This document shows positions 1,132-18,343 of a DNA stretch of 18,343 nucleotides, in pieces (within the stretch, counting starts at the first letter, position 1; every line of letters begins with the position of its first letter). The notes under the pieces are model-generated. The model was not told the DNA's origin and did no database searches. It was given only the letters and a program-made list of their open reading frames with translations. The position numbers and the translations under genes were made by a program. This DNA comes from a virus (taxonomy: Duplodnaviria; Heunggongvirae; Uroviricota; Caudoviricetes): IMG/VR virus record IMGVR_UViG_2526164601_000033; one strand, 5' to 3'.

Positions 1132-1357
1132 CTTCCAGTATCCTCTTCAAAGCAGGGTGATCTGTGGCGATCACCTCCGGCTTGTTTACCATTCCGACAA
1201 AGCGAGCTTGCGGATCCACTCGCCAGCGTCTTCCAACTTTTTTGGGGAGAGGAAATATCATTCCGGCTTTAGCGTATTTACTTAACGTACTCGGAGTTGG
1301 GACCGGTTCACTGAATTCCTCTTTTGCCCACTCAGTGAGCAGAATAAGTCTTGCCAT
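1109..1357 (-). CDS. xis: Excisionase-like recombination directionality factor (small basic protein)
   Basis: 82-aa ORF immediately upstream of int on the same strand, with a 23-bp overlap of the int start (xis-int overlap as in lambda). The call rests on position and size; no sequence match to lambda Xis is claimed. Confidence 0.55.
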   Translation of the reverse strand: MARLILLTEWAKEEFSEPVPTPSTLSKYAKAGMIFPLPKKVGRRWRVDPQARFVGMVNKPEVIATDHPALKRILEDGAPAKI

Positions 1358-1421
1358 GAGCGTCGTTCGCTAATCATGGTCGCCGCCACTATAGCTGGTG
1401 GGCAACGACCGGGGTTGAACA

Positions 1422-3893: not shown

Positions 3894-3988
3894 TTTGTTT
3901 TAACCTCATTACAGATTTCAGGGTGAACGAATCCCTGCCATTGCTGGCATTTTTAATCCGTTGGTATGGCGTTAATATGGCTGGCGGG

Positions 3989-4177
3989 TTATCCAGCCGG
4001 TATTTCGTTATTCAGGTTCAGCGATACTTTTTTTAACGGGAGGCATTCACCGGGGATTTTTTGTTCGTCCCTTACCTGAATGCAGGATGACTTACTGTCA
4101 TAAATTCCGGTAATCACATTTTGTGGCTCACCCGTTATAAGAAAAACGGTCATCACCAGTGCAAATGCTGAAGTCAC
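3989..4177 (-). CDS. ydfD: YdfD-like small membrane (lysis-type) protein
   Basis: 62-aa ORF with GTG start overlapping the dicB-like stop (GTGA) and GGAG about 9 nt upstream. N-terminal hydrophobic segment SAFALVMTVFLITGEP and C-terminal EQKIPGxC...NEIPAG resemble E. coli YdfD as recalled. It is immediately downstream of dicB, as in Qin. Confidence 0.6.
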   Translation of the reverse strand: MTSAFALVMTVFLITGEPQNVITGIYDSKSSCIQVRDEQKIPGECLPLKKVSLNLNNEIPAG

Positions 4178-4362
4178 TGCTGTTCTCCGATAATACCAAG
4201 TTCAAGAAGGGCAATTCTGGAAAGTATGGAATTATCATTGAGAAGATAAGGTTCATATTTTCTCATCTTAATGGCATCTTCCGTAAACTCCCGGTTACTG
4301 AGCAGAACACCAATATCAAAACAACCTTCAGACGTATTAACGTTTGGTAATAACGTTTCCAT
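4174..4362 (-). CDS. dicB: DicB-like cell-division inhibitor
   Basis: 62 aa from the ATG at 4362 (GAGGA about 9 nt upstream): METLLPNVNTSEGCFDIGV...FTEDAI matches the DicB N-terminus (MKTLLPNVNTSEGCFEIGV...) as recalled. The ORF track extends the frame to a GTG at 4467, probably not the true start. The gene is AT-rich. Confidence 0.7.
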   Translation of the reverse strand: METLLPNVNTSEGCFDIGVLLSNREFTEDAIKMRKYEPYLLNDNSILSRIALLELGIIGEQQ

Positions 4363-4531
4363 TATCGCGTCCTCAACAATGAATTTTGTGATGCGGTGCC
4401 TGGTGCCTCCAGGTGACGTTAACCAGTTAACAATTAACGCCGGATACAGAGAATCCACCCATAACACTGTTTTTGGTTTTAACTGTTCCGCGTGCGCTCA
4501 GCCGCATTCACCACATCACAAAATTCACTTT

Positions 4532-4589
4532 AAAAAGGGCGGCAGAGCAGTCACGGAGTAAAACTGATACCGCCAAACGTCACCAGAAA
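4532..4589 (-). ncRNA. dicF: DicF small regulatory RNA with its 3' terminator
   Basis: The reverse complement of 4532-4589 reads TTTCTGGTGACGTTTGGCGGTATCAGTTTTACTCCGTGACTGCTCTGCCGCCCTTTTT, which matches E. coli DicF as recalled, including the GGCGG/CCGCC terminator stem and U-run. It lies about 170 nt upstream of dicB on the same strand, as in Qin. Confidence 0.8.
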
Positions 4590-4922
4590 ATTGATAACAG
4601 AGGGCGTTGCAGCGGGGTTGTCACTTAAGCGTATGGTCAACCTGACAACCCGGTGTCCTCAACGGGGAAGGAATAACCCCTCCATACTTACCGCCGCGCC
4701 ATTTCGCGGATTGCCACAACCGGAAGCGCACGGTCGACGAAAATTTAACGACAGGCTATCTATGAACCAGCTACCTCGCCGTGCGCTTTCGCGTTATGGT
4801 CTGACTTTTCAGAGAAATATCCTTTCAGTAAACTGTCAGTGCCGGATGTTCACCCGTGTCCGGCGCACGCACTCCACTTCACCCGTGGAGAACTCCTTAA
4901 TTACCAACCCTCAGGAGGGTGA

Positions 4923-5156
4923 ATGTTAAAATCAACTCTTATTGCTAAATGCCTTTATCAAAATCGCATGGTAAGCAGCATTTCAATAGGCGAGTCTGCA
5001 GTTAAAAGTATTTTCGAAGAGTACTTTCCCGGGCATGATTTTAATAAATGGAATACCAAATTACCGCCAGCAGTTTCAACGCGTATTCTGAAAGCAACCG
5101 AAAGAGCAAGTACAATTCGCGTTAACTATTTCATTAAAGATTTGTGGGATCTTTGA
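4923..5156 (+). CDS. Hypothetical 77-aa protein on the strand opposite to the surrounding operon
   Basis: ATG preceded by a strong SD (AGGAGGGTGA-ATG). The ORF is AT-rich and its 3' end overlaps the 3' end of the convergent 135-aa gene by 23 bp. No recognisable family. Confidence 0.5.
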   Translation: MLKSTLIAKCLYQNRMVSSISIGESAVKSIFEEYFPGHDFNKWNTKLPPAVSTRILKATERASTIRVNYFIKDLWDL

Positions 5157-5541
5157 TATCCACAGAGCCTAAAGTATGTGCATATGGATGTGCTATTATG
5201 CGCCCTCGCAGATTTGCATCATTTTCTAAATTCACTGAACGAAACAGGGCATCAACAAGGCTCTGTACAATGCAAAGGCAATCGAAGACTGTCGCCGTTT
5301 CTGTTTTGATTGATGAAAGAACATGGCCATTCACGCAAACAGAAATTACCCGTTTATTAACATCGCTTTCCTGCTTTTGATTATCAGAACCATATAGCCC
5401 AGAAAAAGCATTGCGCACATTACGAACCATATTATCGATGGTTTCTTTTTCTGCGGTACTAAGGTCAAGAGTAGCCAGTTGTGAACGAACTATATTCGAT
5501 GCCATTTCCTGTAATGGCGTTGGTAAATCTTTAAATTCCAT
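5134..5541 (-). CDS. Hypothetical 135-aa protein with C-proximal R-x5-H-x-Y motif (possible HEPN-like fold)
   Basis: ORF with GAGG about 8 nt upstream of the ATG, AT-rich. Motif LRGRIIAHPY lies near the C-terminus. The gene is co-directional with and 22 bp downstream of the 72-aa gene. Confidence 0.55.
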   Translation of the reverse strand: MEFKDLPTPLQEMASNIVRSQLATLDLSTAEKETIDNMVRNVRNAFSGLYGSDNQKQESDVNKRVISVCVNGHVLSSIKTETATVFDCLCIVQSLVDALFRSVNLENDANLRGRIIAHPYAHTLGSVDIKDPTNL

Positions 5542-5563
5542 TATTAGCCTCGTTGGTTAGCTA

Positions 5564-5782
5564 TTAACGTGGGTATGTAATCATTCTGGCAATGCTTAAT
5601 GCCGCTGCTTTTTCCAGATTGGTGATATCCTGCTCCAGAGCGGACAGATTTTCAGCCTGCTTAGCCCTGGCTTCATTGGCCCATTTCAGGTCCTGCACCG
5701 CCTTAATTTTCTGGTGCATCCACTCATAAAGTTCATCATCGGTATAGTCTGGCGCGATGATGACGGGGTCTCGTTTCTGCAT
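5564..5782 (-). CDS. Hypothetical 72-aa protein (positional equivalent of ydfC in Qin)
   Basis: ATG with a strong SD (AAGGAG, 6 nt spacing). Same size and relative position as ydfC in the Qin dicB operon; sequence identity to YdfC not verified. Confidence 0.55.
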   Translation of the reverse strand: MQKRDPVIIAPDYTDDELYEWMHQKIKAVQDLKWANEARAKQAENLSALEQDITNLEKAAALSIARMITYPR

Positions 5783-5854
5783 GTCGGCTCCTTGTGGTTA
5801 GCGTTGCCTGCTTTTTAACCACGTCAGGCGAGGTGGTATCCTCTGAGGGGTCTG

Positions 5855-6211
5855 TTACTCGAGAGGAAATTGGTTATGAATACAATCAAGTTTTCTTGCC
5901 CAGAATGTGGTGGCTAAGTCTTTGACACATCCTTTAAGCCGCAGGGCTCTGACAGTTTCGCGGGAGCCATCTGCAAAAATTGTGGTCACCTTGTAACTGA
6001 AGATGAGTCCTCGCAGTTCGATGACGAAATCGTTGACAATATCTTCGGTGCACTCACCAGAGACTTTCTGAAGTAAAGGCGCATACCGCTTAGTTACCGC
6101 TCTGATAACTCTTACCTGTCCGGCAATGGCGCTGATATCAATATAAAGCGCCATCGCTGTTTCTTTGCTGATCCCTGGACGCCTTCCATTCTGATGTTTG
6201 ACTTCGCCCAC
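5855..6211 (-). CDS. Hypothetical 118-aa protein, first gene downstream of the OL-like region
   Basis: ORF with GTG start preceded by AGAGGA 8-13 nt upstream; an internal ATG (residue 20) is an alternative start. No recognisable motif. Confidence 0.4.
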   Translation of the reverse strand: MGEVKHQNGRRPGISKETAMALYIDISAIAGQVRVIRAVTKRYAPLLQKVSGECTEDIVNDFVIELRGLIFSYKVTTIFADGSRETVRALRLKGCVKDLATTFWARKLDCIHNQFPLE

Positions 6212-6289
6212 TGAGAAATCCTCTGCTTCCCCTTAACGCCGGGTAGCGGAACTGTTTGCTGAGAACACCGTGCGGTGTCTTGATGAGTA

Positions 6290-6345
6290 GAATTTAGAAT
6301 AGCCTAAGAGTTATGGTCAAGCTTTTTGTGTAGAAAAACCTAAGC
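6290..6345. promoter_or_regulatory. OL-like operator/promoter cluster downstream of the repressor gene
   Basis: TTAGAATAGCCTAA at 6294-6307 and, on the minus strand, TTAGGTTTTTCTAC (plus 6330-6343) share the TTAG-N6-CTAA/C pattern of the repressor-proximal operators; the second is one mismatch from the OR site TTAGGTTTCTCTAC. A leftward -35-like TTGACC (plus 6315-6320) sits between them. Confidence 0.4.
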
Positions 6346-6418
6346 TTCTTGATGTAAAAAACACAAGTATTTGAAAGTTTGTGCTTTTTATTACAGAGAG
6401 TTGCGAAAAAAAGGGGGG

Positions 6419-6826
6419 TTATTTATTTGCGCTTCTTTTGCGAGCTTTGAGTAGTTCTTCAAAAAGTTTGTTGAAATTCTCAACTCGAGCACGCATCTCT
6501 GACAACAGAGCCTTTTGCTCTGACTCAGGCAGTGCGTCGAACAGTTGAAGCAACTCTTTTTGATCTTCTGTCAGATTGACTGGCTGATTATCTGGGATCG
6601 GTTCGCCTGGTTGCTTATCTTCATCTCCAAAAAGAAGCCAAGTCGGCGAGCACTGAAGCGCCTGGCTCAGTGCGAATAATCTCTTCCCCGCTGGCTGTGT
6701 TTCATCTCTTTCCCATTGAGAAATTGTTACGTGAGCCACTTTGACCAGCTTACCTAATGCGGCCTGAGACAGTTTTAATTTTTTTCGCCTGTATAAGAGG
6801 CGAGCACCGAAGGTTTCGTTTTTCAT
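6419..6826 (-). CDS. dicA: DicA-like HTH (XRE/CI-type) prophage repressor
   Basis: 135-aa ORF. The HTH segment SQAALGKLVKVAHVTISQWE and the blocks QCSPTWLLFGDEDKQP, LFDALPESEQ and EMRARVENFNKLFEELLKAR match E. coli DicA as recalled. It is divergent from a Cro-like gene across an operator-bearing intergenic region. Confidence 0.85.
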   Translation of the reverse strand: MKNETFGARLLYRRKKLKLSQAALGKLVKVAHVTISQWERDETQPAGKRLFALSQALQCSPTWLLFGDEDKQPGEPIPDNQPVNLTEDQKELLQLFDALPESEQKALLSEMRARVENFNKLFEELLKARKRSANK

Positions 6827-6827
6827 A

Positions 6828-6892
6828 TTAGGTAATTCTAATTTTTCTTGACTTAGGTTTCTCTACGATCTAGTTTCCTTAGGAAAATCTAA
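6828..6892. promoter_or_regulatory. OR-like operator region: three TTAG-N6-CTAA/C inverted repeats between divergent repressor and cro-like genes
   Basis: Sites TTAGGTAATTCTAA (6828-6841), TTAGGTTTCTCTAC (6853-6866) and TTAGGAAAATCTAA (6879-6892), spaced about 25-26 bp centre to centre. Rightward -35-like TTGACT at 6848-6853. Leftward -10-like TAGAAT (plus 6835-6840) ends 8 nt before the repressor ATG, suggesting a leaderless or near-leaderless repressor mRNA. Confidence 0.5.
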
Positions 6893-6902
6893 GGGGTTCG
6901 AT

Positions 6903-7130
6903 ATGTTGAAAATTGATGCTATAGCGTTTTTTGGCAGCAAAACAAAGCTTGCCAATGTCGCAGGAGTTAGGCTGGCAAGCGTTGCTGCATGGGGGGAACT
7001 GGTTCCTGAAGGTCGCGCGATGCGCCTGCAAGAGGCATCCGGCGGGGAACTTCAGTACGACCCCAAAGTTTATGACGAATATCGTAAGGCAAAGCGGGCG
7101 GGGCGGTTGAACAATGAAAATCACCACTGA
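6903..7130 (+). CDS. dicC: Cro-like HTH regulator (DicC/YdaS family)
   Basis: 75-aa ORF with AAGGGG about 8 nt upstream. Divergent partner of the DicA-like gene; block GRAMRLQEASGGELQYDPKVYDEYRK resembles DicC as recalled (less certain than the DicA recall). Confidence 0.75.
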   Translation: MLKIDAIAFFGSKTKLANVAGVRLASVAAWGELVPEGRAMRLQEASGGELQYDPKVYDEYRKAKRAGRLNNENHH

Positions 7131-7665
7131 ACAGGTTTGTGAGGCTCTGGATACCTGGGTATGCCGACCAGGAATGACACAGGAGCAGGCGACGATATTA
7201 ATCACGGAAGCATTCTGGGCTCTGAAAGAACGCCCGAACATCGATGTTCAACGCGTCACGTTTAATGATGGCGAGGTTGATCAACGGGCGCTGGGCGTTA
7301 ACCGGGTGAAGATATTCGAACGCTGGAAAGCTATCGACACCAGAGATAAGCGTGACAAATTCACGGCGCTGATTCCGGCAATTATGGAGGCTATCCGGAT
7401 CAGCGATTTCAGATTGTATTGTGAAATTACTGACGGAAAAAGCATTACGTACATGATCGCCGGGTTAAACAAAGAATATGGCGATGTGGTGGAGTCCGGG
7501 CTGCTTTTTGCGGATCCAGTTGTTGTGGAACGTGAGACTGACGAGCTTATAGAAAAAGCTATTGCTTTCAAGCACGCGTATCGTCAGCAATACCAATATT
7601 ACTTTGCAGATAAACAAATGTCTGCCAGGGGTTCGTATGAGTATCGATGCACTACGATGGGCTAA
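7114..7665 (+). CDS. YdaT-like (CII-position) protein
   Basis: 183-aa ORF overlapping the cro-like stop, at the position occupied by ydaT/cII-type genes in Rac-like prophages. The family assignment is by synteny and loose recollection only. Confidence 0.45.
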   Translation: MKITTEQVCEALDTWVCRPGMTQEQATILITEAFWALKERPNIDVQRVTFNDGEVDQRALGVNRVKIFERWKAIDTRDKRDKFTALIPAIMEAIRISDFRLYCEITDGKSITYMIAGLNKEYGDVVESGLLFADPVVVERETDELIEKAIAFKHAYRQQYQYYFADKQMSARGSYEYRCTTMG

Positions 7666-8677
7666 AAAGGTGAAAACCGGCAGTTCATCCAGTAAGTCAG
7701 TATTGACCTGGCTTGCTGATATGTGCGGTGCCGATTTGTGTGCATACCCGTCTGTATCTGCACTGGCAGAAGTAACGGAACTGAACAAAAAGACTGTGCA
7801 GGACAGCTTACGACACCTGATGGAGATTGGGTTAATTGTTGATACCGGTGAGAGAAAAGGCAGAACAAAGCAAATTGTGGTGTACCGACTTATCGGTGTA
7901 GAAGAAAGTGTTGCCGAGCCTGAATACACCCAAAAACGGGAGTCTTTAAAGGTGGGTAAAATTGGTGCTGTTAATAAAAACAGTACCGAAAATGGTTATG
8001 TTTCAGCACAAAACAGACCCAAAAACAGAACTCTTAGCTGCATGGAAAATAACCAAAGACACCCAAATTTTCCATCAAAGACACCCAAAAACGGATCACG
8101 GAACCCAAAGGAACCCAAAGATCTAAACCCCACACATAACGCACGCGAGAGTGCTCCGACCAGTGAGCAGGAAGTTTTGTCGTTACAGGCAGCCCCCCCT
8201 GTATTCCTGTATGGCCTGAGCGAACCCATCGGAAAATTCCCGATGAGCGATAGCTGGTATCCGTCACGGGATTTTCGACGACGGGCTGCGTTGTGGGGGA
8301 TGGCTTTGCCGGAGACAGAATTTACACCTGCTGAACTTGCCGCCTTCCGGGACTACTGGGCAGCGGAGGAGAAAGTGTTTACGCAGATTCAGTGGGAGCA
8401 GAAATTCGCCCGTCACGTAAATCACGTCAGGGCGCAGGTTAAACCAGTCAGCAAAGGGGTAAACCATGCAGCAGCACCAGGTGGCACCGCATCACGGGCA
8501 GTTCAGGAAATTCGGGCAGCACGTGAGCAGTGGGAACGTGAAAACGGATTTATCAGCGACGGAAACGGCCTGGAAGCTGTGGGAACTCATGGGGGTGGTT
8601 TATTCGAACCGCTGGATCCAGAAGAACGGGGCCGCACCTTCGAAGCTCTGGATTGCACAGATTGGCGCGATGACTGA
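7637..8677 (+). CDS. Replication initiation protein (N-terminal HTH, C-terminal DnaT-like domain)
   Basis: Start set to the ATG at 7637 (AGGGG 6 nt upstream; MSIDALRWAKKV...) rather than the track start 7562, which lies inside the upstream gene. The C-terminal block SDSWYPSRDFRRRAALWG...FTPAELAAFRDYW is DnaT-like as recalled. Confidence 0.7.
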   Translation: MSIDALRWAKKVKTGSSSSKSVLTWLADMCGADLCAYPSVSALAEVTELNKKTVQDSLRHLMEIGLIVDTGERKGRTKQIVVYRLIGVEESVAEPEYTQKRESLKVGKIGAVNKNSTENGYVSAQNRPKNRTLSCMENNQRHPNFPSKTPKNGSRNPKEPKDLNPTHNARESAPTSEQEVLSLQAAPPVFLYGLSEPIGKFPMSDSWYPSRDFRRRAALWGMALPETEFTPAELAAFRDYWAAEEKVFTQIQWEQKFARHVNHVRAQVKPVSKGVNHAAAPGGTASRAVQEIRAAREQWERENGFISDGNGLEAVGTHGGGLFEPLDPEERGRTFEALDCTDWRDD

Positions 8678-9131
8678 GCAGCAAATCCGGCAGGTCTGCC
8701 GCCAGTGCATGGACCGCTGCCGGGCGGGTGAAACATGGCCTCCGGACCTGGCTGAGTTTGTGGCACTGATTTCGAAAAGCGGAGCCAATCCATTCGGTCT
8801 GACGGTGGATGCTGTGATGGAGGAGTACCGCCGCTGGCGCAATGAGTCCTGGCGATACGACGGAAGTGATAAGTACCCGTGGTCTCAGCCTGTGCTGTAT
8901 CACATTTGCCTCGAGATGCGTTCAAAGGGGATTGAGCGCCAGATGACCGAAGGGGAATTAAAACGGCTTGCAGAACGGCAACTGACGAAATGGGCAAAGC
9001 ATGTTAGTAACGGCCTGAGCGTTCCGCCAGTCCGGCGACAACTGGCGGCCCCCAAACGCCCGTCGGGGCCAACGCCAATTGAGTTGCTGAAACAGGAATA
9101 TGAACGCCGGAAAGCGGCTGGTTTTGTTTGA
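8466..9131 (+). CDS. Lambda P-like replication protein (helicase loader); start uncertain
   Basis: The C-terminal half parallels lambda P as recalled (YPWS...MTEGELKRLAERQL versus YPWK...LTDAELRRKAADEL). The longest ORF overlaps the upstream gene by 212 bp. Alternative in-frame ATGs at 8592 and 8670; the latter forms an ATGACTGA start/stop overlap. Confidence 0.6.
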   Translation: MQQHQVAPHHGQFRKFGQHVSSGNVKTDLSATETAWKLWELMGVVYSNRWIQKNGAAPSKLWIAQIGAMTEQQIRQVCRQCMDRCRAGETWPPDLAEFVALISKSGANPFGLTVDAVMEEYRRWRNESWRYDGSDKYPWSQPVLYHICLEMRSKGIERQMTEGELKRLAERQLTKWAKHVSNGLSVPPVRRQLAAPKRPSGPTPIELLKQEYERRKAAGFV

Positions 9132-9164
9132 GTTGAGAAGTGATTTTTTACCGGGAGGAAATTT

Positions 9165-9899
9165 ATGGAGACTGTTTTTGACGCACTGAAAGCGATGGGA
9201 AAAGCCACGTCGGTAGAGCTGGCTGCGCGACTTGATATCAGTCGTGAAGAAGTACTGAACGAGCTGTGGGAACTGAAAAAGGCTGGCTTCGTTGATAAAA
9301 GCGTATACACCTGGCGTGTGGCTGATAACAACGTTCAGCAGGAACAGCCAGCGCCAGAAGAAACCACCACGGCAACAGAAGCGAAAATCTCAGAGTGCGA
9401 TTTAACCGCGACGATTGAACAACGCGGACCACAAACGGCGGATGAACTGGCTACGCTGTTCGGTACAACATCCCGCAAAGTTGCTTCAACGCTGGCAATG
9501 GCAATCAGCAAAGGTCGTCTGATTCGCGTAAACCAGAACGGTAAAATTCGTTACTGCATACCAGGTGATAATTTACCAGCAGAGCCGAAAGTTGAATCGG
9601 TAGCGGAAACCGATGGTAAAGCCTTTCCTCAGCCAGCCGGTGTTGCGTTACCGGTACAGAAAGATGCAACACAGGAAGATATTAAAACAGAAACTGTGGC
9701 GGACATTGTGCAGTCGCTGCCATCGTTTACTGCAACGCGAGAAGATGATTTGATTTTGCCATCGCTGCATATGGCAAATCGCGAACTGCGTAGGGCGAAG
9801 AATCATGTCCAGAAGTGGGAGCGAGTCTGCGCCGCGCTGCGGGAGCTGAACAAGCACCGGGATATGGTTGCCGGGATTTGTCGGAAGTCCGGGCAATGA
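9165..9899 (+). CDS. Hypothetical phage protein with N-terminal winged-helix-like region (DUF1627-like)
   Basis: 244-aa ORF with GGGAGGAAA SD. The N-terminus ([30 protein letters not shown]) looks like a winged-helix segment. DUF1627 is a loose recollection, not verified. Confidence 0.55.
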
Positions 9900-10060
9900 G
9901 CGGATGGTGCAGGCCTGAAATCATGATACTAACAATGAAGGTAAAATGCATCGGCAGTCTGATTGGTCGTAGTGAGGCGGCGGTCAGGATGAAAGCCCAG
10001 GTTAAGGGAATAAGCCTGATTCTGCGGGGTGATTTTCACCAGTCAACAAAATATCCGTAG
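9896..10060 (+). CDS. Hypothetical 54-aa protein, possibly translationally coupled
   Basis: ATG overlaps the upstream stop (ATGA at 9896-9899). No recognisable motif; short. Confidence 0.3.
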
Positions 10061-10569
10061 CGCGATAACGGTCAAAAATTATGGCGCTGACACTTTTGTG
10101 CCACTGGAGATGACTGTACCTAAGTTCAGGGGAGAAGAACACGTCCGGTGGGATGGTCGGGCCAGATTTAAAGGGCAGGTCATGGCTCCAGCCTGTACGC
10201 TGGCAATGGAGGCTGCCTGGCGGGAAATTGATATGGGAACCACGCCACTCAGGGATTTACTGCCGGTCCAGAGAATAAATTCCTGTTACGGTTACACCAC
10301 TGTGATCTTGCAAGTGCAGGAAAGTAGGTCTACACGGTAACGCGAGTGCGTGTAACTTTTGATGTCATTCCCGTAGAAACACCGGACAAATTTTCGCTGA
10401 CAGGTCATGCAGAAGGTATAAATCTGCAGATTATGGACAATTACGGATATCCGGCAAGAGCCGGAAAAAGCATGCCGCCTCTAATTCTCAGTGGAAGATG
10501 GACTTGATTATACTCATTGCATTGTCAGAAATAGTTATCCATTAAAGGCTGGCTATTCCAAACAGGATG

Positions 10570-10591
10570 TTGATTACAAAAATGTAATCAA
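10570..10591. promoter_or_regulatory. Perfect palindrome TTGATTACA-N4-TGTAATCAA in the promoter region of the binding-protein gene
   Basis: 9-bp perfect inverted repeat with a 4-bp AAAA spacer in an AT-rich intergenic region about 170 bp upstream of the ATG at 10759. -10-like TATAAT at about 10620. Confidence 0.45.
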
Positions 10592-10758
10592 CATGTAAGG
10601 TTTATACTCTTCAATATGCGTATAATTTTCCTTATTTTGTTGACTTTAAATAACAAGCTATGCACGAGGTAAAGTCGGATAAGTTTATCTGGATGTAATA
10701 TATATTATTTGTAGTGTTTATAACTTTATTTCATGATAACCAATAAAAGGAGTTTTTT

Positions 10759-11517
10759 ATGAGGAACATAATGGCAGGTTTTTTAATATTCCTGTCTTCT
10801 GCTGCTTATGCTGATATCAATCTGTATGGTCCTGGTGGCCCGCATACAGCCTTGCTTGATGCAGCCAAACTTTATGCCGAAAAAACAGGTATTATAGTGA
10901 ACGTTCATTACGGCCCACAGAACAAATGGAATGAAGATGCCAAAAAAAATGCAGATATCTTGTTTGGCGCATCAGAACAATCTGCTCTGGCTATCATTCG
11001 GGACCATAAAGACAGCTTCAGTGAAAAAGATATTCAGCCTCTTTATCTGCGAAAAAGTATTTTACTGGTAAAGAAAGGTAATCCTAAAAATATCCGGAGT
11101 ATTGACGACCTGACCAGACCTGGGATTGGCGTAATTGTTAATGATGGTGGTGGTACCAGTAATACATCAGGCACTGGCGTCTGGGAAGATATTGCCGGAC
11201 GTAAAGGGAATATAGAAACTGTCGCCGCAATCCGAAAAAATATTATTTTATATGCGCCCAATAGCGGAACTGCACGTAAGGCTCTTGAGAATCAGCCTGG
11301 AGCAGATGTCTGGATAACCTGGGCTGACTGGGCAGCCAGTAATCCAGAAATTGGTGATGTCGTGGAAATAGCGCCAGACTACGTGATATGGCGTGATATG
11401 AACATTACAGTACGTCAGGATGCAAATGATGAAACCCGTCGATTTGCAGAATGGCTACAAACCGATGAAGCGGCGCCTGCATTCAAAAAATATGGCTGGA
11501 CCAGGAAAGGCACTTGA
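10759..11517 (+). CDS. Periplasmic solute-binding protein, ModA-like (molybdate/tungstate/sulfate-type PBP2 fold), with signal peptide
   Basis: 252-aa ORF with AAAGGAG SD. N-terminal signal-like MAGFLIFLSSAAYA. The blocks ADILFGASEQ, SILLVKKGNPKNI and C-terminal AEWLQTDEAAPAFKKYGW parallel E. coli ModA (ADLFISADQ, SLVVVAPKAS, YDYLKGPQAAEIFKRYGF) as recalled. The gene is AT-rich. Confidence 0.8.
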   Translation: MRNIMAGFLIFLSSAAYADINLYGPGGPHTALLDAAKLYAEKTGIIVNVHYGPQNKWNEDAKKNADILFGASEQSALAIIRDHKDSFSEKDIQPLYLRKSILLVKKGNPKNIRSIDDLTRPGIGVIVNDGGGTSNTSGTGVWEDIAGRKGNIETVAAIRKNIILYAPNSGTARKALENQPGADVWITWADWAASNPEIGDVVEIAPDYVIWRDMNITVRQDANDETRRFAEWLQTDEAAPAFKKYGWTRKGT

Positions 11518-11520
11518 CAT

Positions 11521-11549
11521 CCTCGTCCTTCAGGACGTGGATTCTTTTT
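11521..11549 (+). terminator. Possible intrinsic terminator after the binding-protein gene
   Basis: Imperfect stem CCTCGTCCT / AGGACGTGG followed by ATTCTTTTT. One mismatch in the stem and the T-run is offset. Confidence 0.35.
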
Positions 11550-11852
11550 CCGGATGCCGCGCCAGCGGCATGTAGGGGCAGCTCACAAAACGGAAAAAAT
11601 TGTACGCTAAGCCTCGCCAGGTGAACTGAATTCATTCCGATATGGGAATTCCCATATCGGGCGAAAACGGTTTGCTGTAACGGCAGAGTTAAGTAGGATT
11701 GCTGCGGGTGCTTGAGGCTATCTGCCTCGGGCATGAACACCAACGGCAGATAGATAAAAGCCCCACCCGACTATAAATCGAAGTGAGGCCCCTATATGCT
11801 CGTCACATATAGATTGCCTCTTACGGACCGAAAGGTCAAGGAGAAGCAGGCT

Positions 11853-12008
11853 ATGAAGCAGCAAAAGGCGATGTTAATCGCCCTGATCGTCATCTGTTTA
11901 ACCGTCATAGTGACGGCACTGGTAACGAGGAAAGACCTCTGCGAGGTACGAATCCGAACCGGCCAGACGGAGGTCGCTGTCTTCACAGCTTACGAACCTG
12001 AGGAGTAA
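11853..12008 (+). CDS. hokD: Hok/Gef-family membrane toxin (type I toxin-antitoxin toxin)
   Basis: 51-aa product MKQQKAMLIALIVICLTVIVTALVTRKDLCEVRIRTGQTEVAVFTAYEPEE matches HokD/RelF as recalled. AAGGAG SD. A long structured leader lies upstream, with palindromes at 11637-11660 and 11792-11812. Confidence 0.85.
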   Translation: MKQQKAMLIALIVICLTVIVTALVTRKDLCEVRIRTGQTEVAVFTAYEPEE

Positions 12009-12076
12009 GAGACCAGGCGGGGGAGAAATCCCTCGCCACCTCTGATGTGTCAGGCATCCTCAACGCACCCGCACTT

Positions 12077-12105
12077 AACCCGCTTCGGCGGGTTTTTGTT
12101 TTTAT
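12077..12105 (+). terminator. Rho-independent terminator downstream of hok
   Basis: Stem AACCCGC / GCGGGTT with TTCG loop, followed by TTTTTGTTTTT. Confidence 0.6.
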
Positions 12106-12116
12106 TTTCAACGCGT

Positions 12117-12146
12117 TTGAAGTTCCGGACGGCGCCGGAATAGAAT
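12117..12146 (+). promoter_or_regulatory. Promoter-like element with a palindrome in the spacer
   Basis: -35-like TTGAAG (12117-12122), 18-bp spacer containing the inverted repeat TTCCGG...CCGGAA, -10-like TAGAAT (12141-12146). Placed after the hok terminator and upstream of the Rem-like gene. Confidence 0.35.
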
Positions 12147-12228
12147 CAAAAATACTTAAGTAGCGCGCAGGGAGAAGAGGGATGGACCCCGAACAGGGGA
12201 GTGCTATTTATCTGGAAGGATTCTGTTG

Positions 12229-12486
12229 ATGAGAATCGAAGAATTACGTGAAATTTTTAGTGAAGGTGGCCTCTATACTGTGCGCGTTGAGAAGGGCGCT
12301 ATTGTCAGCCACTGCCGTATTAAATGTTTACAGTCTCAACAAAGGAAGAGTGGAGCTGCGTTAATTCATTTTGTGGATGGGCTTGTGACGGATGGTTTTA
12401 TTTTGCGTGCAAATGAATTTGTCACATCGTTGCCGTCTCTGAAAGAAGCTGGGATTAAGGCTGGTTTTTCTGCTTTTGAAGATTAG
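12229..12486 (+). CDS. Rem-like hypothetical protein (positional equivalent of rem in Qin)
   Basis: 85 aa from the ATG at 12229 (the track start 12226 is TTG). Sits immediately downstream of hokD and upstream of a DUF968-like gene, matching the hokD-rem-ydfU order of Qin. Sequence identity to Rem not verified. Confidence 0.5.
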   Translation: MRIEELREIFSEGGLYTVRVEKGAIVSHCRIKCLQSQQRKSGAALIHFVDGLVTDGFILRANEFVTSLPSLKEAGIKAGFSAFED

Positions 12487-12555
12487 TGAATTCATCTACA
12501 ATTCAGCGCAGGGCTGAACCCCTGTTGAGTAACACTGTGCCACCGGAGAAAGCCG

Positions 12556-12834
12556 ATGGCGCAAAATTCCAGACTACACAATTCTGATAATTCAGCCGTC
12601 TTTGCCAGCAGGCACGGGCGGCGTTCTCATGCATTCAAATCTGACTGGTTCCGGCACGCCCCATGCACTGAAGAACAGGCCGAATGGCTGATTCAGAACT
12701 ACCGCAGACGTGGGTATGAGTTTAGGAAAGCCCTCAGCCTCGATTATCGTCACTGGATAATCTACGTCAGGCTGCCGTACTCCGAGCGCCCACCGCGTCC
12801 GTCCCGCACATTCCAGCAACGCATCTGGAGGTAA
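12556..12834 (+). CDS. Hypothetical 92-aa basic protein
   Basis: ATG with GGAGAAAG SD. Arg/His-rich; no recognisable family. Confidence 0.45.
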   Translation: MAQNSRLHNSDNSAVFASRHGRRSHAFKSDWFRHAPCTEEQAEWLIQNYRRRGYEFRKALSLDYRHWIIYVRLPYSERPPRPSRTFQQRIWR

Positions 12835-12835
12835 C

Positions 12836-13891
12836 GTGCGGGTATTACTTCGACCTGTTCCGGTACCGGAACTTGGGTTGGTGGTCCTTAAACCAGGCCG
12901 TGAATCCATGCAGGTATTCCATAACCCTCGAGTGCTTGTGGAGCCGGAACCGAAAAGCATGCGCGGTCTGCCGTCCGGCATCGTCCCTGCCGTTCGCCAG
13001 CCGCTGGCGGAGGATAAATCATTACTGCCGTTTTTCAGCAATGAGCGTGTGATTCGTGCTGTTGGTGGCGCTGGTGCACTGTCTGACTGGCTGTTGCGTC
13101 ATGTCAAATCCTGCCAGTGGCCTCATGGTGACTATCATCACAGTGAAACCGTTATTCACCGTTATGGTACCGGCGCAATGGTGTTGTGCTGGCACTGCGA
13201 CAACCAGCTGCGTGACCAGACATCCGAATCACTCGAGCAACTTGCTCATCAAAACCTGTCAGCATGGATGATTGACGTCATCGGTCACGCAATAAGCGGT
13301 ACGCAGGAGCGTGAATTATCTCTGGCTGAATTATCCTGGTGGGCGGTCCGCAATCAGGTGGCGGACGCGCTACCGGAAGCGGTATTACGTCGTTCGCTGG
13401 GGTTGCGTGCGGAAAAAATCCGCTCAATGTACCGTGAAAGCGACATCGTACCGGGAGAGCAGACCGCCACCATCATACTGAAGCAGCGCACAAAAAATCT
13501 TGCGCCGCTGCCTCACGCCCACCAGCAAAACCCGCCACAGGAAAAGACGGTGGTCAGCATTGCCGTTGATCCGGAGTCACCGGCTCAGTATCTCCAGCGC
13601 CAGAAACCACAACGGGAAGAGATGCCTGTATACACGCGCTGGGTAAAAACGCAGAAATGCATGACGTGCGGTAATCAGGCAGATGATCCGCATCACATCA
13701 TTGGTCATGGACTGGGAGGGATGGGAACAAAGGCTGATGATTTGTTTGTTATTCCGCTGTGCCGTAAATGTCATAACGAACTGCACGCTGGGGTAAAAGA
13801 TTTTGAAGAAAAACACGGCAGCCAGCTGTTGTTGCTGATTCGTTTTTTAATGCACGCGAGAAATTCGGGTGTCCTGAAGTGGAAAGCATGA
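12836..13891 (+). CDS. DUF968-like (YdfU-like) protein with C-terminal Cys/His zinc-binding-type motif
   Basis: GTG start with a strong SD (TGGAGGTAAC-GTG); alternative ATG at 12908. The C-terminus carries KCMTCGN...HHIIGHG...CRKCHNELH. The family call is by recollection of nin-region proteins. Confidence 0.65.
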   Translation: MRVLLRPVPVPELGLVVLKPGRESMQVFHNPRVLVEPEPKSMRGLPSGIVPAVRQPLAEDKSLLPFFSNERVIRAVGGAGALSDWLLRHVKSCQWPHGDYHHSETVIHRYGTGAMVLCWHCDNQLRDQTSESLEQLAHQNLSAWMIDVIGHAISGTQERELSLAELSWWAVRNQVADALPEAVLRRSLGLRAEKIRSMYRESDIVPGEQTATIILKQRTKNLAPLPHAHQQNPPQEKTVVSIAVDPESPAQYLQRQKPQREEMPVYTRWVKTQKCMTCGNQADDPHHIIGHGLGGMGTKADDLFVIPLCRKCHNELHAGVKDFEEKHGSQLLLLIRFLMHARNSGVLKWKA

Positions 13892-14257
13892 ATGACTGAA
13901 CGGATAGAATTTGTTTTGCCTTACCCGCCGACGGTGAATACCTACTGGCGACGTCATGGCAATACGTATTTCATCTCGGAAGCCGGAAAGCGTTATCGCC
14001 GTGATGTGGCGCTAATTGTTCGCCAGCAGCGGCTGAAATTAAACCTGTCCGGAAGGCTGGTGATAAAGATTATTGCAGAGCCACCGGATAAGCGCCGTCG
14101 TGACCTGGACAATATCCTGAAAGCACCACTGGATGTGCTGACGCATGCCGGACTTCTCATAGACGACGAGCAGTTTGATGAAATCAATATTGTGCGCGGT
14201 CAGCTCGTTCCTGGTGGGCGGCTGGGGATAAAAATCACAGAACTGGAGTGCGCATGA
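13892..14257 (+). CDS. rusA: RusA Holliday-junction resolvase
   Basis: 121-aa ORF. The blocks LPYPPTVNTYWRRHGN and DKRRRDLDNILKAPLDVLTHAGLLIDDEQ parallel E. coli RusA ([45 protein letters not shown]) as recalled. Confidence 0.9.
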   Translation: MTERIEFVLPYPPTVNTYWRRHGNTYFISEAGKRYRRDVALIVRQQRLKLNLSGRLVIKIIAEPPDKRRRDLDNILKAPLDVLTHAGLLIDDEQFDEINIVRGQLVPGGRLGIKITELECA

Positions 14258-14475
14258 ATAACCACTATTTACAGTTTGTGCGTGAGCAGCTCATTATCGC
14301 CACCGCTGATTTGAGTGGGGCAACAAAAGGTCAGCTTGAAGCCTGGCAGGAGAATGCCATGTTCGATACAGGGCGTTACAGGCGAAAAAAAATCCGGTAC
14401 CGCGATGAAGTGACTGGAAAAATGATAACGCGGGATAATCCACCAATCGTTATTATCCTGCGCCCGGCCCTTTAG
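14254..14475 (+). CDS. Hypothetical 73-aa protein; 3' end runs 10 nt into the first tRNA
   Basis: ATG at 14254 overlaps the rusA stop (ATGA), with GGAG 5 nt upstream. The stop codon TAG at 14473-14475 lies inside the tRNA. It occupies the position where a late antiterminator Q gene would be expected but is too short for one. Confidence 0.35.
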   Translation: MNNHYLQFVREQLIIATADLSGATKGQLEAWQENAMFDTGRYRRKKIRYRDEVTGKMITRDNPPIVIILRPAL

Positions 14476-14541
14476 CTCAGTGGTGAGAGCGAGCGACTCA
14501 TAATCGCCAGGTCGCTGGTTCAAATCCAGCAAGGGCCACCA
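14466..14541 (+). tRNA. tRNA-Ile2-like (anticodon CAU; Met cannot be excluded from sequence alone)
   Basis: Manual cloverleaf: acceptor GGCCCTT/AAGGGCC, D-arm GCTC-AGTGGTGA-GAGC, anticodon loop CTCATAA, T-arm GCTGG-TTCAAAT-CCAGC, encoded CCA. Resembles E. coli ileX-type tRNA as recalled. Confidence 0.8.
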
Positions 14542-14542
14542 A

Positions 14543-14618
14543 CCGCCACTAGCCATCAGGAAAGAGCGTCAACCCTTTAAGTTGAGTGTGCGAGGTTCGA
14601 GTCCCCGGTGGTGGTCCA
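14543..14618 (+). tRNA. tRNA-like sequence, degenerate (possible pseudo-tRNA); predicted anticodon loop CCTTTAA
   Basis: Acceptor CCGCCAC/GTGGTGG (one G-U pair) plus encoded CCA and a canonical GGTTCGAGTCC T-loop. The D-stem has only two Watson-Crick pairs (GCCA versus GAGC), the T-stem has an A-C mismatch, and position 33 is C rather than U. Confidence 0.4.
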
Positions 14619-14631
14619 TTATCGGTATTCT

Positions 14632-14705
14632 GCGTTGTTAGCTCAGCAGGACAGAGCAATTGCCTTCTAAGCAATCGGTCACTGGTTCGACTCCAGTACA
14701 ACGCG
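14632..14705 (+). tRNA. tRNA-Arg (anticodon UCU, reads rare AGA)
   Basis: Manual cloverleaf: acceptor GCGTTGT/ACAACGC, D-arm GCTC-AGCAGGAC-AGAGC, anticodon stem ATTGC/GCAAT with loop CTTCTAA, T-arm ACTGG-TTCGACT-CCAGT. CCA is not encoded. Confidence 0.8.
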
Positions 14706-14721
14706 CTACACTTATTTTCCC

Positions 14722-14746
14722 GGCTCGCTTTTGCGGGCCTTTTTTG
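14722..14746 (+). terminator. Rho-independent terminator after the tRNA cluster
   Basis: Stem GGCTCGC / GCGGGCC (one G-U pair) with TTTT loop, followed by TTTTTTG. Confidence 0.6.
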
Positions 14747-14788
14747 TATCTGCGCCACGCCCGGCGCATACCAACCACAGAGCCTTTC

Positions 14789-14798
14789 GGGGGGGGGG
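14789..14798. repeat. G10 homopolymer tract
   Basis: Ten consecutive G at 14789-14798, about 80 bp upstream of the TerB-like start codon. Confidence 0.9.
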
Positions 14799-14880
14799 AG
14801 CTTACGGAGTGGTCAGTGTGACTTTCTCTGTGGGCAGATCGCTCCCGGGCGTTGGCTCACCCACCCAAAGGAACGTCACG

Positions 14881-15313
14881 ATGTTTGGTATTTTTGGTAA
14901 AAAAAGCCCGCAGAGCGGCAACGGAAATTAAAAAGTTTGAAAAACGCGATCTGGCACAGGTGGTGATTAACGCCGCCTACCTGGTGGCCTGTGCAGATGG
15001 TGAATGTGAGGCTTCCTAGAAAGCGAAGATCGAACAGGTACTGCGTAATCAGCCTGCGCTGTACGCGTTTACGTCAGAAATTAATGCGATTAGCGCAACC
15101 ATTATCGGTCAGCTGGATACGAACTTTAAAACTGGTCGTCGTGCGGCGTTACGTGAGATCGAGGATGTGAAACACGATACGCGTGAAGCGGAAGATGTGC
15201 TGGATGTGGCGGTGGCCATTGCGGAGGCAGACGGCGAAATTGAGCCGGAAGAGCGCAAGGTGCTGGAAGAGATTGCCGGTGTTCTGGGTCTTCGTCTGGA
15301 GAATTACCTGTGA
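14881..15313 (+). pseudogene. TerB-like (tellurite-resistance TerB family) gene disrupted by a frameshift in an A7 tract and an in-frame TAG
   Basis: ATG at 14881 (AAGGAA SD) reads MFGIFGKKSPQSGNGN then stops at 14929-14931. The +1 frame from about 14906 continues ...FEKRDLAQVVINAAYLVACADGECEAS-TAG(15017-15019)-KAKIEQVL...AVAIAEADGEIEPEERKVLEEIAGVLGLRLENYL, ending at 15311-15313. The ADGE..EE motifs are TerB-like as recalled. The frame change maps to the A7 run at 14899-14905. Confidence 0.6.
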
Positions 15314-15477
15314 CGGTAAAACTGCGCCTGACTGTGGCTGCACTCCTGCTGTTTCTGGTGGTGATGGTGGATTTCACCAGCAGAATCATGTCGGTGCTGG
15401 CGGATGGGGTGCTGGTCTGCGGCATTATGGTATTGCTGTGGCCGGTGATAAAAAGAAACAGCCTGCATAATGCTTGA
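15310..15477 (+). CDS. Possible small membrane protein (55 aa, GTG start overlapping the TerB-like stop)
   Basis: The frame reads VTVKLRLTVAALLLFLVVMVDFTSRIMSVLADGVLVCGIMVLLWPVIKRNSLHNA with two hydrophobic segments. GTGA start/stop overlap and no clear SD, so weak. Confidence 0.3.
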   Translation: MTVKLRLTVAALLLFLVVMVDFTSRIMSVLADGVLVCGIMVLLWPVIKRNSLHNA

Positions 15478-15643
15478 TTTTTTGTTTGCTGTTTATTAAA
15501 AACACTTCTGCATGGTGAATCCCCCTGTGCGGAGGGGCGATCAGCAACCAGGTATATGGGATAATCGCGGATTCAGGTGCTGATACTGAATTCACCGGGA
15601 GGCACCCGGCACCATGCAAGAAAAAGAATGTGCATGCAAACAT

Positions 15644-15667
15644 GCCCCTCTCCGGAGGGGCTTTTTT
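15644..15667 (+). terminator. Rho-independent terminator in the intergenic region upstream of the esterase gene
   Basis: Stem GCCCCTC / GAGGGGC with TCCG loop, followed by TTTTTT. Confidence 0.55.
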
Positions 15668-15794
15668 ATGGGTAAAAAATGCCCGAATGGGTTCGGGCAA
15701 CAGCATGAGATACTGATATTGTTGTGTTGTTATCGTGTGGATTTTAACCAGGGTTTATCAGGCTGCGCAACTGCGTGGCCTTTTTTCATTTCTT

Positions 15795-15839
15795 GGGCTG
15801 TAGTCCCCGTGTGTCATTCAGGCTTCCGGACTACAGCCC
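15795..15839. repeat. 12-bp perfect inverted repeat (GGGCTGTAGTCC ... GGACTACAGCCC) with 21-nt spacer
   Basis: Arms at 15795-15806 and 15828-15839, about 45 bp upstream of the esterase ATG. Confidence 0.6.
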
Positions 15840-15882
15840 ACTCCATATCTGATTTAATACACTATCCCGGCCGGGAGGAATA

Positions 15883-16824
15883 ATGACATTTAAACATTAT
15901 GATGTTGTCAGGGCGGCGTCGCCGTCAGATCTTGCGGAAAAGCTGACACATAAACTGAAAGAGGGCTGGCAGCCGTTTGGTAGTCCGGTGGCCATAACCC
16001 CTTATACTCTGATGCAGGCGATTACAGCAGAAGGTGATGTGGTGGTCAGTGGTGCAACTGAGCCGGATTGGTACTACGTCATCGTACTGGCCGGGCAGTC
16101 CAATGCCATGGCTTACGGTGAAGGGCTTCCGCTGCCGGATTCATACGATGCTCCGGATCCGCGCATTAAACAGCTGGCGCGCCGCAGTACAGTGACGCCG
16201 GGTGGGGCTGCCTGCAGATATAACGATATTATTCCGGCCGACCACTGCCTGCATGATGTGCAGGATATGAGTACGCTGAATCATCCGAAGGCAGACCTGA
16301 GCAAAGGGCAGTACGGCTGTGTCGGCCAGGGGTTACATATTGCCAAAAAACTGCTCCCGTATATCCCGAATAACGCGGGGATCCTGCTGGTACCATGCTG
16401 TCGTGGTGGTTCGGCATTTACCCAGGGCGCGGAGGGGACATTCAGTGCGGACACGGGGGCCAGCCAGGATTCGGCGCGCTGGGGTGTGGGTAAACCGTTA
16501 TATCAGGACCTGATTGCGCGCACCAAAGCTGCATTACAGAAGAACCCGAAAAATGTGTTGCTGGCGGTGTGCTGGATGCAGGGAGAGTTTGACATGAGCG
16601 CCGCCACCCACGCACAGCAACCTGCGCTGTTTACAGCCATGCTGACACAGTTTCGTGCTGACCTCTCCGTGTTTAACGCGCAGTGCCATGGTGGCAGTGC
16701 TGCAGATGTGCCGTGGATTTGTGGTGACACGACGTATTACTGGAAAAATACCTACGGCACCCAGTACACCGGGAAAGCAATCGCTGGCGAAGGTGACGTC
16801 AATTCCTCTGGTCAGTCCGGTTGA
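15883..16824 (+). CDS. Sialate O-acetylesterase-like protein (NanS-p-like: N-terminal DUF1737-like segment plus SGNH/SASA esterase domain), apparently truncated
   Basis: 313-aa ORF with GGGAGG SD. Motif LAGQSNAMAYGE (the GQSN block of SGNH/SASA esterases) and WMQGEFD (WxQGESD-like). Synteny with prophage nanS-p paralogues downstream of the tRNA cluster in lambdoid/Stx phages; those are usually much longer. Confidence 0.75.
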   Translation: MTFKHYDVVRAASPSDLAEKLTHKLKEGWQPFGSPVAITPYTLMQAITAEGDVVVSGATEPDWYYVIVLAGQSNAMAYGEGLPLPDSYDAPDPRIKQLARRSTVTPGGAACRYNDIIPADHCLHDVQDMSTLNHPKADLSKGQYGCVGQGLHIAKKLLPYIPNNAGILLVPCCRGGSAFTQGAEGTFSADTGASQDSARWGVGKPLYQDLIARTKAALQKNPKNVLLAVCWMQGEFDMSAATHAQQPALFTAMLTQFRADLSVFNAQCHGGSAADVPWICGDTTYYWKNTYGTQYTGKAIAGEGDVNSSGQSG

Positions 16825-17263
16825 GTTTTCGACATCATCGTGGCGGCGGGCTGTTCTGTCTCTTGAAGAACATCATAAAGCCTGGTTGTTGTGGTGTTAC
16901 AGCGGGAGTATTTGTTGGGAATATCAGATCGCGATAACACAGTGGGCGTGGAATGAATTTAATACTCAATCCGGTACCAGAAAAATTGCTGGGAAAACGC
17001 AGGAACGCCTGAAAAAATTAATCTGGCTGGCGGCGCAGGCAGTAAAAGCAGAACTTTTTGGTGGGGAAGGTTATGAATATCAGGAGCTGGCATTACTGGC
17101 GGGAGTGACAACTAAAAACTGGTCCAAAACATTTACTCGTCACTGGGTTGCAATGAAACACATTTTTCACCGACTGGATAGTGAGGCTTTATTATTTGTA
17201 ATGAGAACACGTTCAAAACAAAAGGCGGCATTTTCAAAGCAATGTGTTGCAAAAGTAGATTGA
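16825..17263 (+). other. Open reading frame without a credible start, in a different phase downstream of the esterase stop (possible frameshifted C-terminal remnant)
   Basis: The track ORF 16655-17263 is stop-free for 202 codons but has no ATG with an SD after 16824. The part upstream of 16824 is the alternate frame of the esterase gene. Confidence 0.3.
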
Positions 17264-17326
17264 AAGGCATATATTTCATGCAAATCTGATATTTTGCCGA
17301 TTTTGTACGTGATGGCAAAAGCAAAC

Positions 17327-17354
17327 AAAACCCGCCCACAAGCGGGTTTTGTTG
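17327..17354 (+). terminator. Rho-independent terminator (hairpin plus T-run)
   Basis: Stem AAAACCCGC / GCGGGTTTT with CCACAA loop, followed by GTTGT. An A-run precedes it, so it could act in both directions. Confidence 0.6.
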
Positions 17355-17500
17355 TGCCACTTATCTCGGATAGACATGGTGAATGCGCTGGTGGAGGAGA
17401 TAAGGGTGATTTTTGTATGCTTGCAACATTGATTTCGTAACACACCATTTACGGGGCGTACAAAAACAGGGAGAGTGAGGGCGTTTATTTTGTGCCCTTC

Positions 17501-18343
17501 ATGACAGACGGTAACGGCGTCAATACCGCCACTAACGCGCCGGCAGAAGATCCGGATATTCCGGCATCAGGATATTACGGTGCGGCATCGAGAACGAATG
17601 GAAACCAGGTATCATCAAACCGCCCGACACATTTCAGTTCATGGGCGCGCAGGAGCATTATTCCGGATCGTCTGGCAACCGCTATTCTGAACGCAGCCGG
17701 GCGCACCTCAGCCTTCATCAGTGGTAAGGCACCGGAAATCAAACCCTCGCCCGGCGGCAACACGCCATCGGGTCCGTCTGCAGATACGTCCGTTCGCACA
17801 ATCTCCCTGCTGCCGGCAGCCGGAGAGGCTGCTGCGCAGGGCTGGAGCATTAAGGATGGCGGAATTCAGTTGTCGGGTGGTGTATTTAAGATCACCAAGC
17901 AGAGCAATAAAACCTGGTCCCTGACGCATCCGGTGGATGACGCAATTACCCTGCTGACACAGGGCGGCAGACTGACCTGTAAGTTCCGCCTGTCAGGCGC
18001 ACTGACCAACAATCAGTTCGGGCTGGGGATTTATCTGTATACGGATGCTCCCGTTCCTGATGGTGTGGCGATGACGGGTACCGGTAATCCGTTCCTGATG
18101 TCGTACTTCACTCAGACCACTGACGGCAGAGTGAATCTGATGCATCACAGGAAAGCCGGAAACACGAAGCTGGGGGAGTTCGGCGATTACGGTAACGACT
18201 GGCAGACGCTGGAGCTGGTGTTCACCGCCGGCAGTGCCACGGTTACTCCGAAACTGAATGGAGTGGCTGGCCCGGCATTCCAGGTTATAAAAGACAGTCT
18301 GACACTGGGACTGAATGCGCTGACGCTGACGGATGTTACAAAA
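17501..18343 (+). CDS. Hypothetical protein, 3'-truncated by the window end (beta-rich, Gly/Thr-rich)
   Basis: Manual translation from the ATG at 17501 runs 281 codons to the window end without a stop. It is absent from the ORF track, presumably because no stop falls inside the window. An in-frame GTG at 17492 is an alternative start. No family recognised. Confidence 0.5.
   Translation, partial: MTDGNGVNTATNAPAEDPDIPASGYYGAASRTNGNQVSSNRPTHFSSWARRSIIPDRLATAILNAAGRTSAFISGKAPEIKPSPGGNTPSGPSADTSVRTISLLPAAGEAAAQGWSIKDGGIQLSGGVFKITKQSNKTWSLTHPVDDAITLLTQGGRLTCKFRLSGALTNNQFGLGIYLYTDAPVPDGVAMTGTGNPFLMSYFTQTTDGRVNLMHHRKAGNTKLGEFGDYGNDWQTLELVFTAGSATVTPKLNGVAGPAFQVIKDSLTLGLNALTLTDVTK

Follow-up and report, generated by a model that had tools for sequence, protein, structure and literature searches.

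A Q gene followed by pR'/tR' is textbook lambdoid biology. The NanS-p esterases of Stx phages are 636-657 aa long, and the last SGNH block of this family reads RSSH, RASH or RPTH in published alignments (PMC10462455). Both a Q gene and a nanS-p gene occur in pieces in the 18,343-nt stretch of DNA analysed here (the window). The window corresponds to the last 18.3 kb of contig AIGO01000025.1 (assembly GCA_000249975.2), ending 1 base before the contig end, and is 100% identical to the final 12.4 kb retrieved from that contig. The contig comes from the draft assembly of E. coli DEC9E, a strain of serotype O26:H11 and sequence type ST29 that is stx-negative and was recovered in Mexico in 1986 (PMC5592225). 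An integrase gene at the window start adjoins ompW both in the contig and in the complete genome of the sister strain DEC9B, and the window is therefore the left two-thirds of a lambdoid prophage integrated at ompW. Within this prophage, a truncated esterase and the start-less open frame behind it are almost certainly the two sides of a single junction, left by the conservative relocation of one block of DNA.

The truncated NanS-p ORF (15883-16824, plus strand; stop codon at 16822-16824) encodes 313 aa. Its residues 1-295 are native and carry DUF1737 plus the SGNH blocks up to WMQGEFD, while the last 18 residues (TGKAIAGEGDVNSSGQSG) are foreign and are translated from the relocated block, out of the Q frame. 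DUF1737 was recognised by Pfam at residues 3-50 (PF08410, E 4.7e-16) and the SASA domain at residues 66-262 (PF03629, E 1.4e-13), the latter covering only positions 4-157 of the 226 in the profile. Both GQSN and WMQGEFD were found, with GQSN aligned to the GQSN of E. coli NanS, the block I serine motif. In strain DEC9B at least two copies of nanS-p are intact, and the intact paralogues of that strain are 616-617 aa long. An earlier note on this DNA had described a NanS-p-like esterase cut short at 313 aa, a description confirmed by the incomplete SASA profile and by the length of these paralogues.

After the esterase stop, the frame 16826-17260 remains open for 145 codons and ends at a stop at 17261-17263. 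It has no ATG start, and the only preceding in-frame GTG codons are at 16655 and 16793. An open run of 145 codons in 18 kb is, by its length alone, not beyond chance. With its length and its place immediately behind the stop, the frame would fit a frameshift or other small lesion in nanS-p, in which case it would encode the C-terminal portion of NanS-p. However, the frame matches the Q antiterminator family (PF06323, Phage_antiter_Q; E 3.9e-55, profile positions 82-217 of 220), and 673 bp separate the break from the point where NanS-p sequence continues, leaving a simple lesion with next to no probability. The earlier note was thus correct about a long frame with no start, but the assignment of that frame to the NanS-p C-terminus fails, as it shows PF06323 Q and no NanS-p similarity. 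The note had also proposed comparison with full-length nanS-p, and this comparison does locate a change of frame: 673 bp further on, at 17442, the NanS-p sequence is taken up again in a frame displaced by one. Of the two causes offered at the time, frameshift or rearrangement, the second holds and the first does not, with a 673-bp block inserted between 16768 and 16769.

The open frame belongs to the 3' two-thirds of Q, codons 66-229 plus the stop (16769-17263, plus strand; PF06323). Codons 1-65 remain as a 5' stump at the native site (14254-14448, plus strand; translation MNNHYL...DNPPI), which runs into the tRNA leader for 8 more codons (VIILRPAL) before a stop at 14473-14475. Q is thus split at the boundary of codons 65 and 66 into pieces 2.3 kb apart, the downstream piece being 164 codons long, and the window holds no full-length Q domain with its own start codon, only the stump and the ATG-less fragment. 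Neither piece would be expected to function. The stump and its short extension (14254-14475) form a donor-side scar that directly abuts the leader of the tRNA cluster and was missed by gene callers. Overlapping the Q stop is a late-promoter-like site (17247-17275, plus strand; TTGCAA-17 nt-TATATT), followed by a GC-rich hairpin (17324-17353, plus strand), both of them consensus-level matches only. From their position directly after Q, these two elements (17247-17353) may represent the pR'/tR'-type module normally found 3' of this gene. A sequence comparison of Q with solved structures gave no match except one that was marginal and irrelevant, and NCBIfam gave zero matches for any gene fragment at the locus.

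Comparison with related prophages explains both halves of the observation. In BLAST searches of phage records, the esterase flanks matched intact nanS-p/yjhS in two pieces with ~670 bp of the query unmatched between them, and the unmatched 673 bp (16769-17441) proved 99.9% identical to the 3' part of Q and its downstream region in PPompW prophages. For the description that follows, the window is divided into blocks A (1-14448), C (14449-16768, 2320 bp), B (16769-17441, 673 bp) and D (17442-18343), named by their native order. The window reads A-C-B-D, whereas the DEC9B chromosome and PPompW (LC567818) read A-B-C-D. In the native order, A ends with rusA and Q codons 1-65, B (673 bp) supplies Q codons 66-229 and the putative pR'/tR' region, C (2320 bp) carries the tRNAs, TerB, DUF3927, the sRNAs and the 5' part of nanS-p, and D holds the 3' part of nanS-p. 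Window stretches 1-14448, 16769-17441 and 14449 onward are consecutive in both references at 99.9-100% identity. For example, on the PPompW locus (L001), window 10449-14448 corresponds to positions 1-4000, 16769-17441 to positions 4001-4673 and 14448-14795 to positions 4673-5020. The same stretches follow DEC9B, with 99.98% identity over window 1-14448 (up to Q codon 65), 100% for 16769-17441, colinearity for 14448-14795 and 99.8% identity for 17442-18343. The relocated block B (plus strand) is identical to DEC9B chromosome 2344984-2345656, where it lies between the equivalents of window 14448 and 14449, 2.3 kb upstream of its present site. In this scheme block B would have left Q after codon 65 and settled in nanS-p after codon 295, so that one relocation would split both genes.

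Returning block B to its native place in silico restored both reading frames. Q became a 229-aa protein, 100% identical to the Q of DEC9B and covering positions 2-217 of 220 in PF06323 (E 1e-90), and the NanS-p frame ran without a stop through 596 codons up to the end of the contig, with a junction (GTQYNTIYGAYKNRE) identical to that of DEC9B. The swap is thus precise, with no base lost or gained, and nothing was seen that contradicts this structural description. The rearranged junctions read ...GGGATAATCCACCAATC / GTTATTATCCTGCGCCC (A/C), ...GGCACCCAGTACA / CCGGGAAAGCAATCGC (C/B) and ...CATTGATTTCGTAAC / ACACCATTTACGGGGCG (B/D), and their native counterparts ...CCACCAATC / CCGGGAAAGC (A/B), ...TTTCGTAAC / GTTATTATCC (B/C) and ...CCCAGTACA / ACACCATTTAC (C/D). 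Microhomology at the blunt junctions amounts to 1, 0 and 0 nt, and no direct or inverted repeats were found at the block boundaries. A search for a shared recombinase core or a common restriction site was also negative, as the CCCGGG at A/B does not recur at either of the other boundaries. The A/C junction showed a resemblance to the tRNA leader of other phages, which was set aside as a weak chance similarity.

The same comparison bears on the possibility that a mobile element or foreign prophage DNA was inserted into nanS-p. Such events have precedents, since IS-interrupted nanS-p alleles are on record in O157 Stx2a-phage variants (PMC10462455), and ISEc20 lies near this locus in the O145 version of the ompW prophage. 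However, the insert is exactly the 673 bp missing 2.3 kb upstream in the same prophage, its sole coding content is the Q fragment, and it has no transposase, terminal repeats or target-site duplication, making an insertion of this kind very improbable. Import of block B from another prophage is rejected on the same ground, the insert being equal to the upstream gap.

The site of the break matters for the fate of the esterase. The 3' fragment of NanS-p fills block D (17442-18343, plus strand), is in frame from 17444 and runs off the contig end. The restored NanS-p aligned with E. coli NanS (PDB 3PT5) over residues 59-379 (E 5e-121) and with the lectin-like C-terminal domain of NanS-p (PDB 6YP6) over residues 421-595. 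Its last SGNH block is RPTH (17621-17632, plus strand), and His359 of this block (codon 17630-17632) aligns with a histidine of 3PT5 that we take to be the catalytic His301 of NanS. This block lies beyond the insertion point, in block D, 673 bp and one frame away from the 313-aa ORF, as does the lectin-like C-terminal domain DUF6645 (about 17954-18286, plus strand), which the ORF likewise lacks. NanS-p is thus split after codon 295, inside the catalytic domain. DUF1737 and SGNH blocks I-III lie within the 313-aa ORF and some 84 residues at the end of the NanS fold, with the predicted catalytic His, outside it, a loss that would probably leave the product inactive as an esterase; neither NanS-p piece would be expected to function. 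The earlier note had supposed that the catalytic domain was separated from a C-terminal portion and might still be active by itself. A C-terminal part is indeed present downstream, but the break falls inside the catalytic fold and not behind it, and the suggestion of activity is not supported, as the NanS alignment needs residues 59-379 and the native residues end at 295.

The rearranged order was sought across large sequence collections and found only in the contig itself. None of the three junctions (C/B, B/D and A/C) was spanned in any of 5426 complete E. coli genomes, the order occurred in none of 50,697 phage records, and the exact junction strings were absent from IMG/VR, the metagenome collection and GTDB representative genomes. 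In an exact-protein index, each of the chimeric ORFs (313 aa and 156 aa) was listed in AIGO01000025.1 only. The native order is common: its A/B junction string, used as a positive control, was present in 98 IMG/VR contigs, the A/B region was contiguous in 1226 genomes, and A/B was spanned by 1227 of 1231 records. The A/B sequence is single-copy, at a median of 1 place per genome, and the tRNA-to-nanS-p module occurs in up to 16 places per genome.

Over the 14.4 kb of block A, the contig and DEC9B differ at only 3 positions. Two substitutions relative to DEC9B, 53 bp apart at positions 3335 and 3388, fall in the gene for an 823-aa exonuclease; the resulting private protein is on record in AIGO01000025.1 only, and a 401-bp stretch of the gene had no exact match among complete genomes, the best of which was 99.8% identical. 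DicF antisense RNA lies beside dicB (4537-4588) and sok antitoxin RNA overlaps a hok-type toxin gene (11706-11855). Such pairs are usual cargo of cryptic prophages. In addition, paa, encoding the AcfC-family adhesin Paa, occupies 10759-11517 and is preceded by a fimbrial-protein pseudogene according to the DEC9B annotation.

Block C (14449-16768, plus strand; 2320 bp), now upstream of B, carries the first 886 nt of nanS-p. ARAGORN predicted three tRNA genes (14466-14541, 14543-14618 and 14632-14706, plus strand) with anticodons CAT, TTT and TCT. Only the first and third reached the Rfam gathering score, and RefSeq lists only tRNA-Ile and tRNA-Arg in DEC9B. The second of the three genes (14543-14618) is possibly degenerate. 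A TerB-family gene (14852-15313), located between the tRNAs and DUF3927, is present as two short ORFs and is annotated in DEC9B as a pseudogene with an internal stop. Just upstream of nanS-p, Rfam identified the sRNA STnc100 (15481-15673, plus strand; 146 bits) and the anti-GcvB sRNA AgvB (15674-15735, minus strand; 96 bits), in a region where the corresponding part of the ompW prophage of DEC9B has either diverged or is missing. A contiguous tract from about 15533 to 16310, possibly to 16751, which takes in AgvB and about 430 nt from the start of nanS-p, is of the allele type of other prophages instead of the ompW type. It resembles a second DEC9B prophage at 2.18 Mb and PPyecE, with a few private SNPs, and had no exact match in any complete genome. 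Gene conversion could have produced the tract, or the assembler could have switched from one paralogue to another. The idea that the assembly collapsed the paralogues site by site into a consensus was rejected for block C, as the variant sites form one contiguous tract of the other paralogue type.

It is a roughly balanced question whether DEC9E itself carries the A-C-B-D order or whether that order is confined to the draft assembly of 2012, with a slight lean toward an artefact. We give an even chance to an assembly error, through mis-ordered pieces or a chimeric consensus, in which case Q and nanS-p of DEC9E would be intact as in DEC9B. The order is private to one contig across all collections scanned, the junctions fall at 0.9-3.9 kb from the end of the contig, in the module that recurs most among lambdoid prophages, and block C holds the other-paralogue tract (about 15533-16310 or further) with no exact complete-genome match. 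In addition, an exact cut-and-paste that reuses three breakpoints resembles a moved block of text, and we know of no E. coli mechanism for it. However, the breakpoints lie away from repeat boundaries, A/B being in single-copy sequence and C/D inside a copy-specific SNP cluster, and for the same reasons the idea that the block boundaries coincide with boundaries of paralogue homology is unsupported. No k-mer is common to the three boundaries, so that assembly by overlap or graph would require reads across the new junctions; a triple short repeat that would make both orders valid for a graph assembler was looked for at the boundaries and not found. The sequence also contains no Ns, which likewise speaks against an assembly error. 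Scaffolders usually leave Ns. Blocks B and C together measure 2993 bp, near the common 3-kb mate-pair insert size, which may be coincidence. A chimera from mate-pair circularisation was considered and set aside, as it explains C/B only and neither A/C nor B/D.

A genuine rearrangement private to DEC9E, in the strain or in a laboratory stock, is rated at somewhat below even. It would have arisen either from three breaks religated in the wrong order or from excision of B and its reinsertion 2.3 kb downstream. All three junctions lie in copy-specific sequence, where a consensus normally shows such junctions only with spanning reads, and the contig is otherwise of good quality, with 3 differences from DEC9B in block A. 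In contrast, no transposase, inverted repeats, target duplication, recombinase core or useful microhomology was found at the locus, and a series of duplications, deletions or inversions could give this order only by striking the same breakpoints again to the exact nucleotide. Classical end-joining is, to our knowledge, absent from E. coli, which also weighs against a genuine event. The order is moreover known from one instance, with no independent DEC9E data set among the collections searched. More narrowly, it is unlikely that the order is real and arose in one event, as a homology-independent and exact cut-and-paste of a non-mobile 673-bp piece with three blunt junctions. If true, such an event would imply an undescribed rejoining of several simultaneous breaks, or unrecognised recombinase activity, in a prophage. 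We know of neither a biological mechanism nor an assembler error that would naturally yield an exact, blunt three-breakpoint swap in copy-specific sequence.

Under either origin, the 313-aa 'SASA family esterase' and 156-aa 'Q' ORFs annotated on the DEC9E contig are fragments and should be excluded as functional paralogues from surveys of nanS-p and Q alleles. The locus also illustrates how what looks like a truncated enzyme followed by an orphan ORF can be the product of a local block swap. If the order is real, the prophage would lack Q-dependent late transcription and would have lost one of several nanS-p copies, locking a prophage that was already cryptic. The loss of one nanS-p copy would probably matter little. 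The exactness of the swap, if real, would be a small mechanistic curiosity and the sole unusual aspect of the locus.

Set against described systems, the locus is no new family or system and is ordinary prophage decay or an artefact, consisting of a pair of split genes. Once the block is removed, NanS-p has the same order of DUF1737, SASA/SGNH and lectin-like domains as the well-described NanS-p of Stx and non-Stx lambdoid prophages (for example 933W and phi24B vb_24B_21) and occupies the same place between the Q/tRNA region and the holin gene; in the DEC9E contig, however, the gene is split in the catalytic domain and the ORF retains 295 native residues, without the His block and the C-terminal domain. 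Chromosomal NanS (YjhS, 3PT5) has neither DUF1737 nor the lectin-like domain, and restored residues 59-379 cover nearly its whole chain, which defines the extent of the catalytic fold, whereas the 313-aa product spans only about three quarters of that fold. The IS-interrupted nanS-p with C-terminal region type CTR3 in O157 Stx2a phages (PMC10462455) is likewise a disrupted copy in a genome with other copies, although those alleles are interrupted by an IS at the C-terminal end and that of the DEC9E contig by a non-mobile piece of the neighbouring Q, in the catalytic domain. Similarly, the stump and block B together make a complete 229-aa protein of the PF06323 type, with a promoter-like site and a hairpin directly after it that may correspond to the pR'/qut/tR' of the lambdoid Q module, whereas the DEC9E contig presents this gene in two pieces, 2.3 kb apart.
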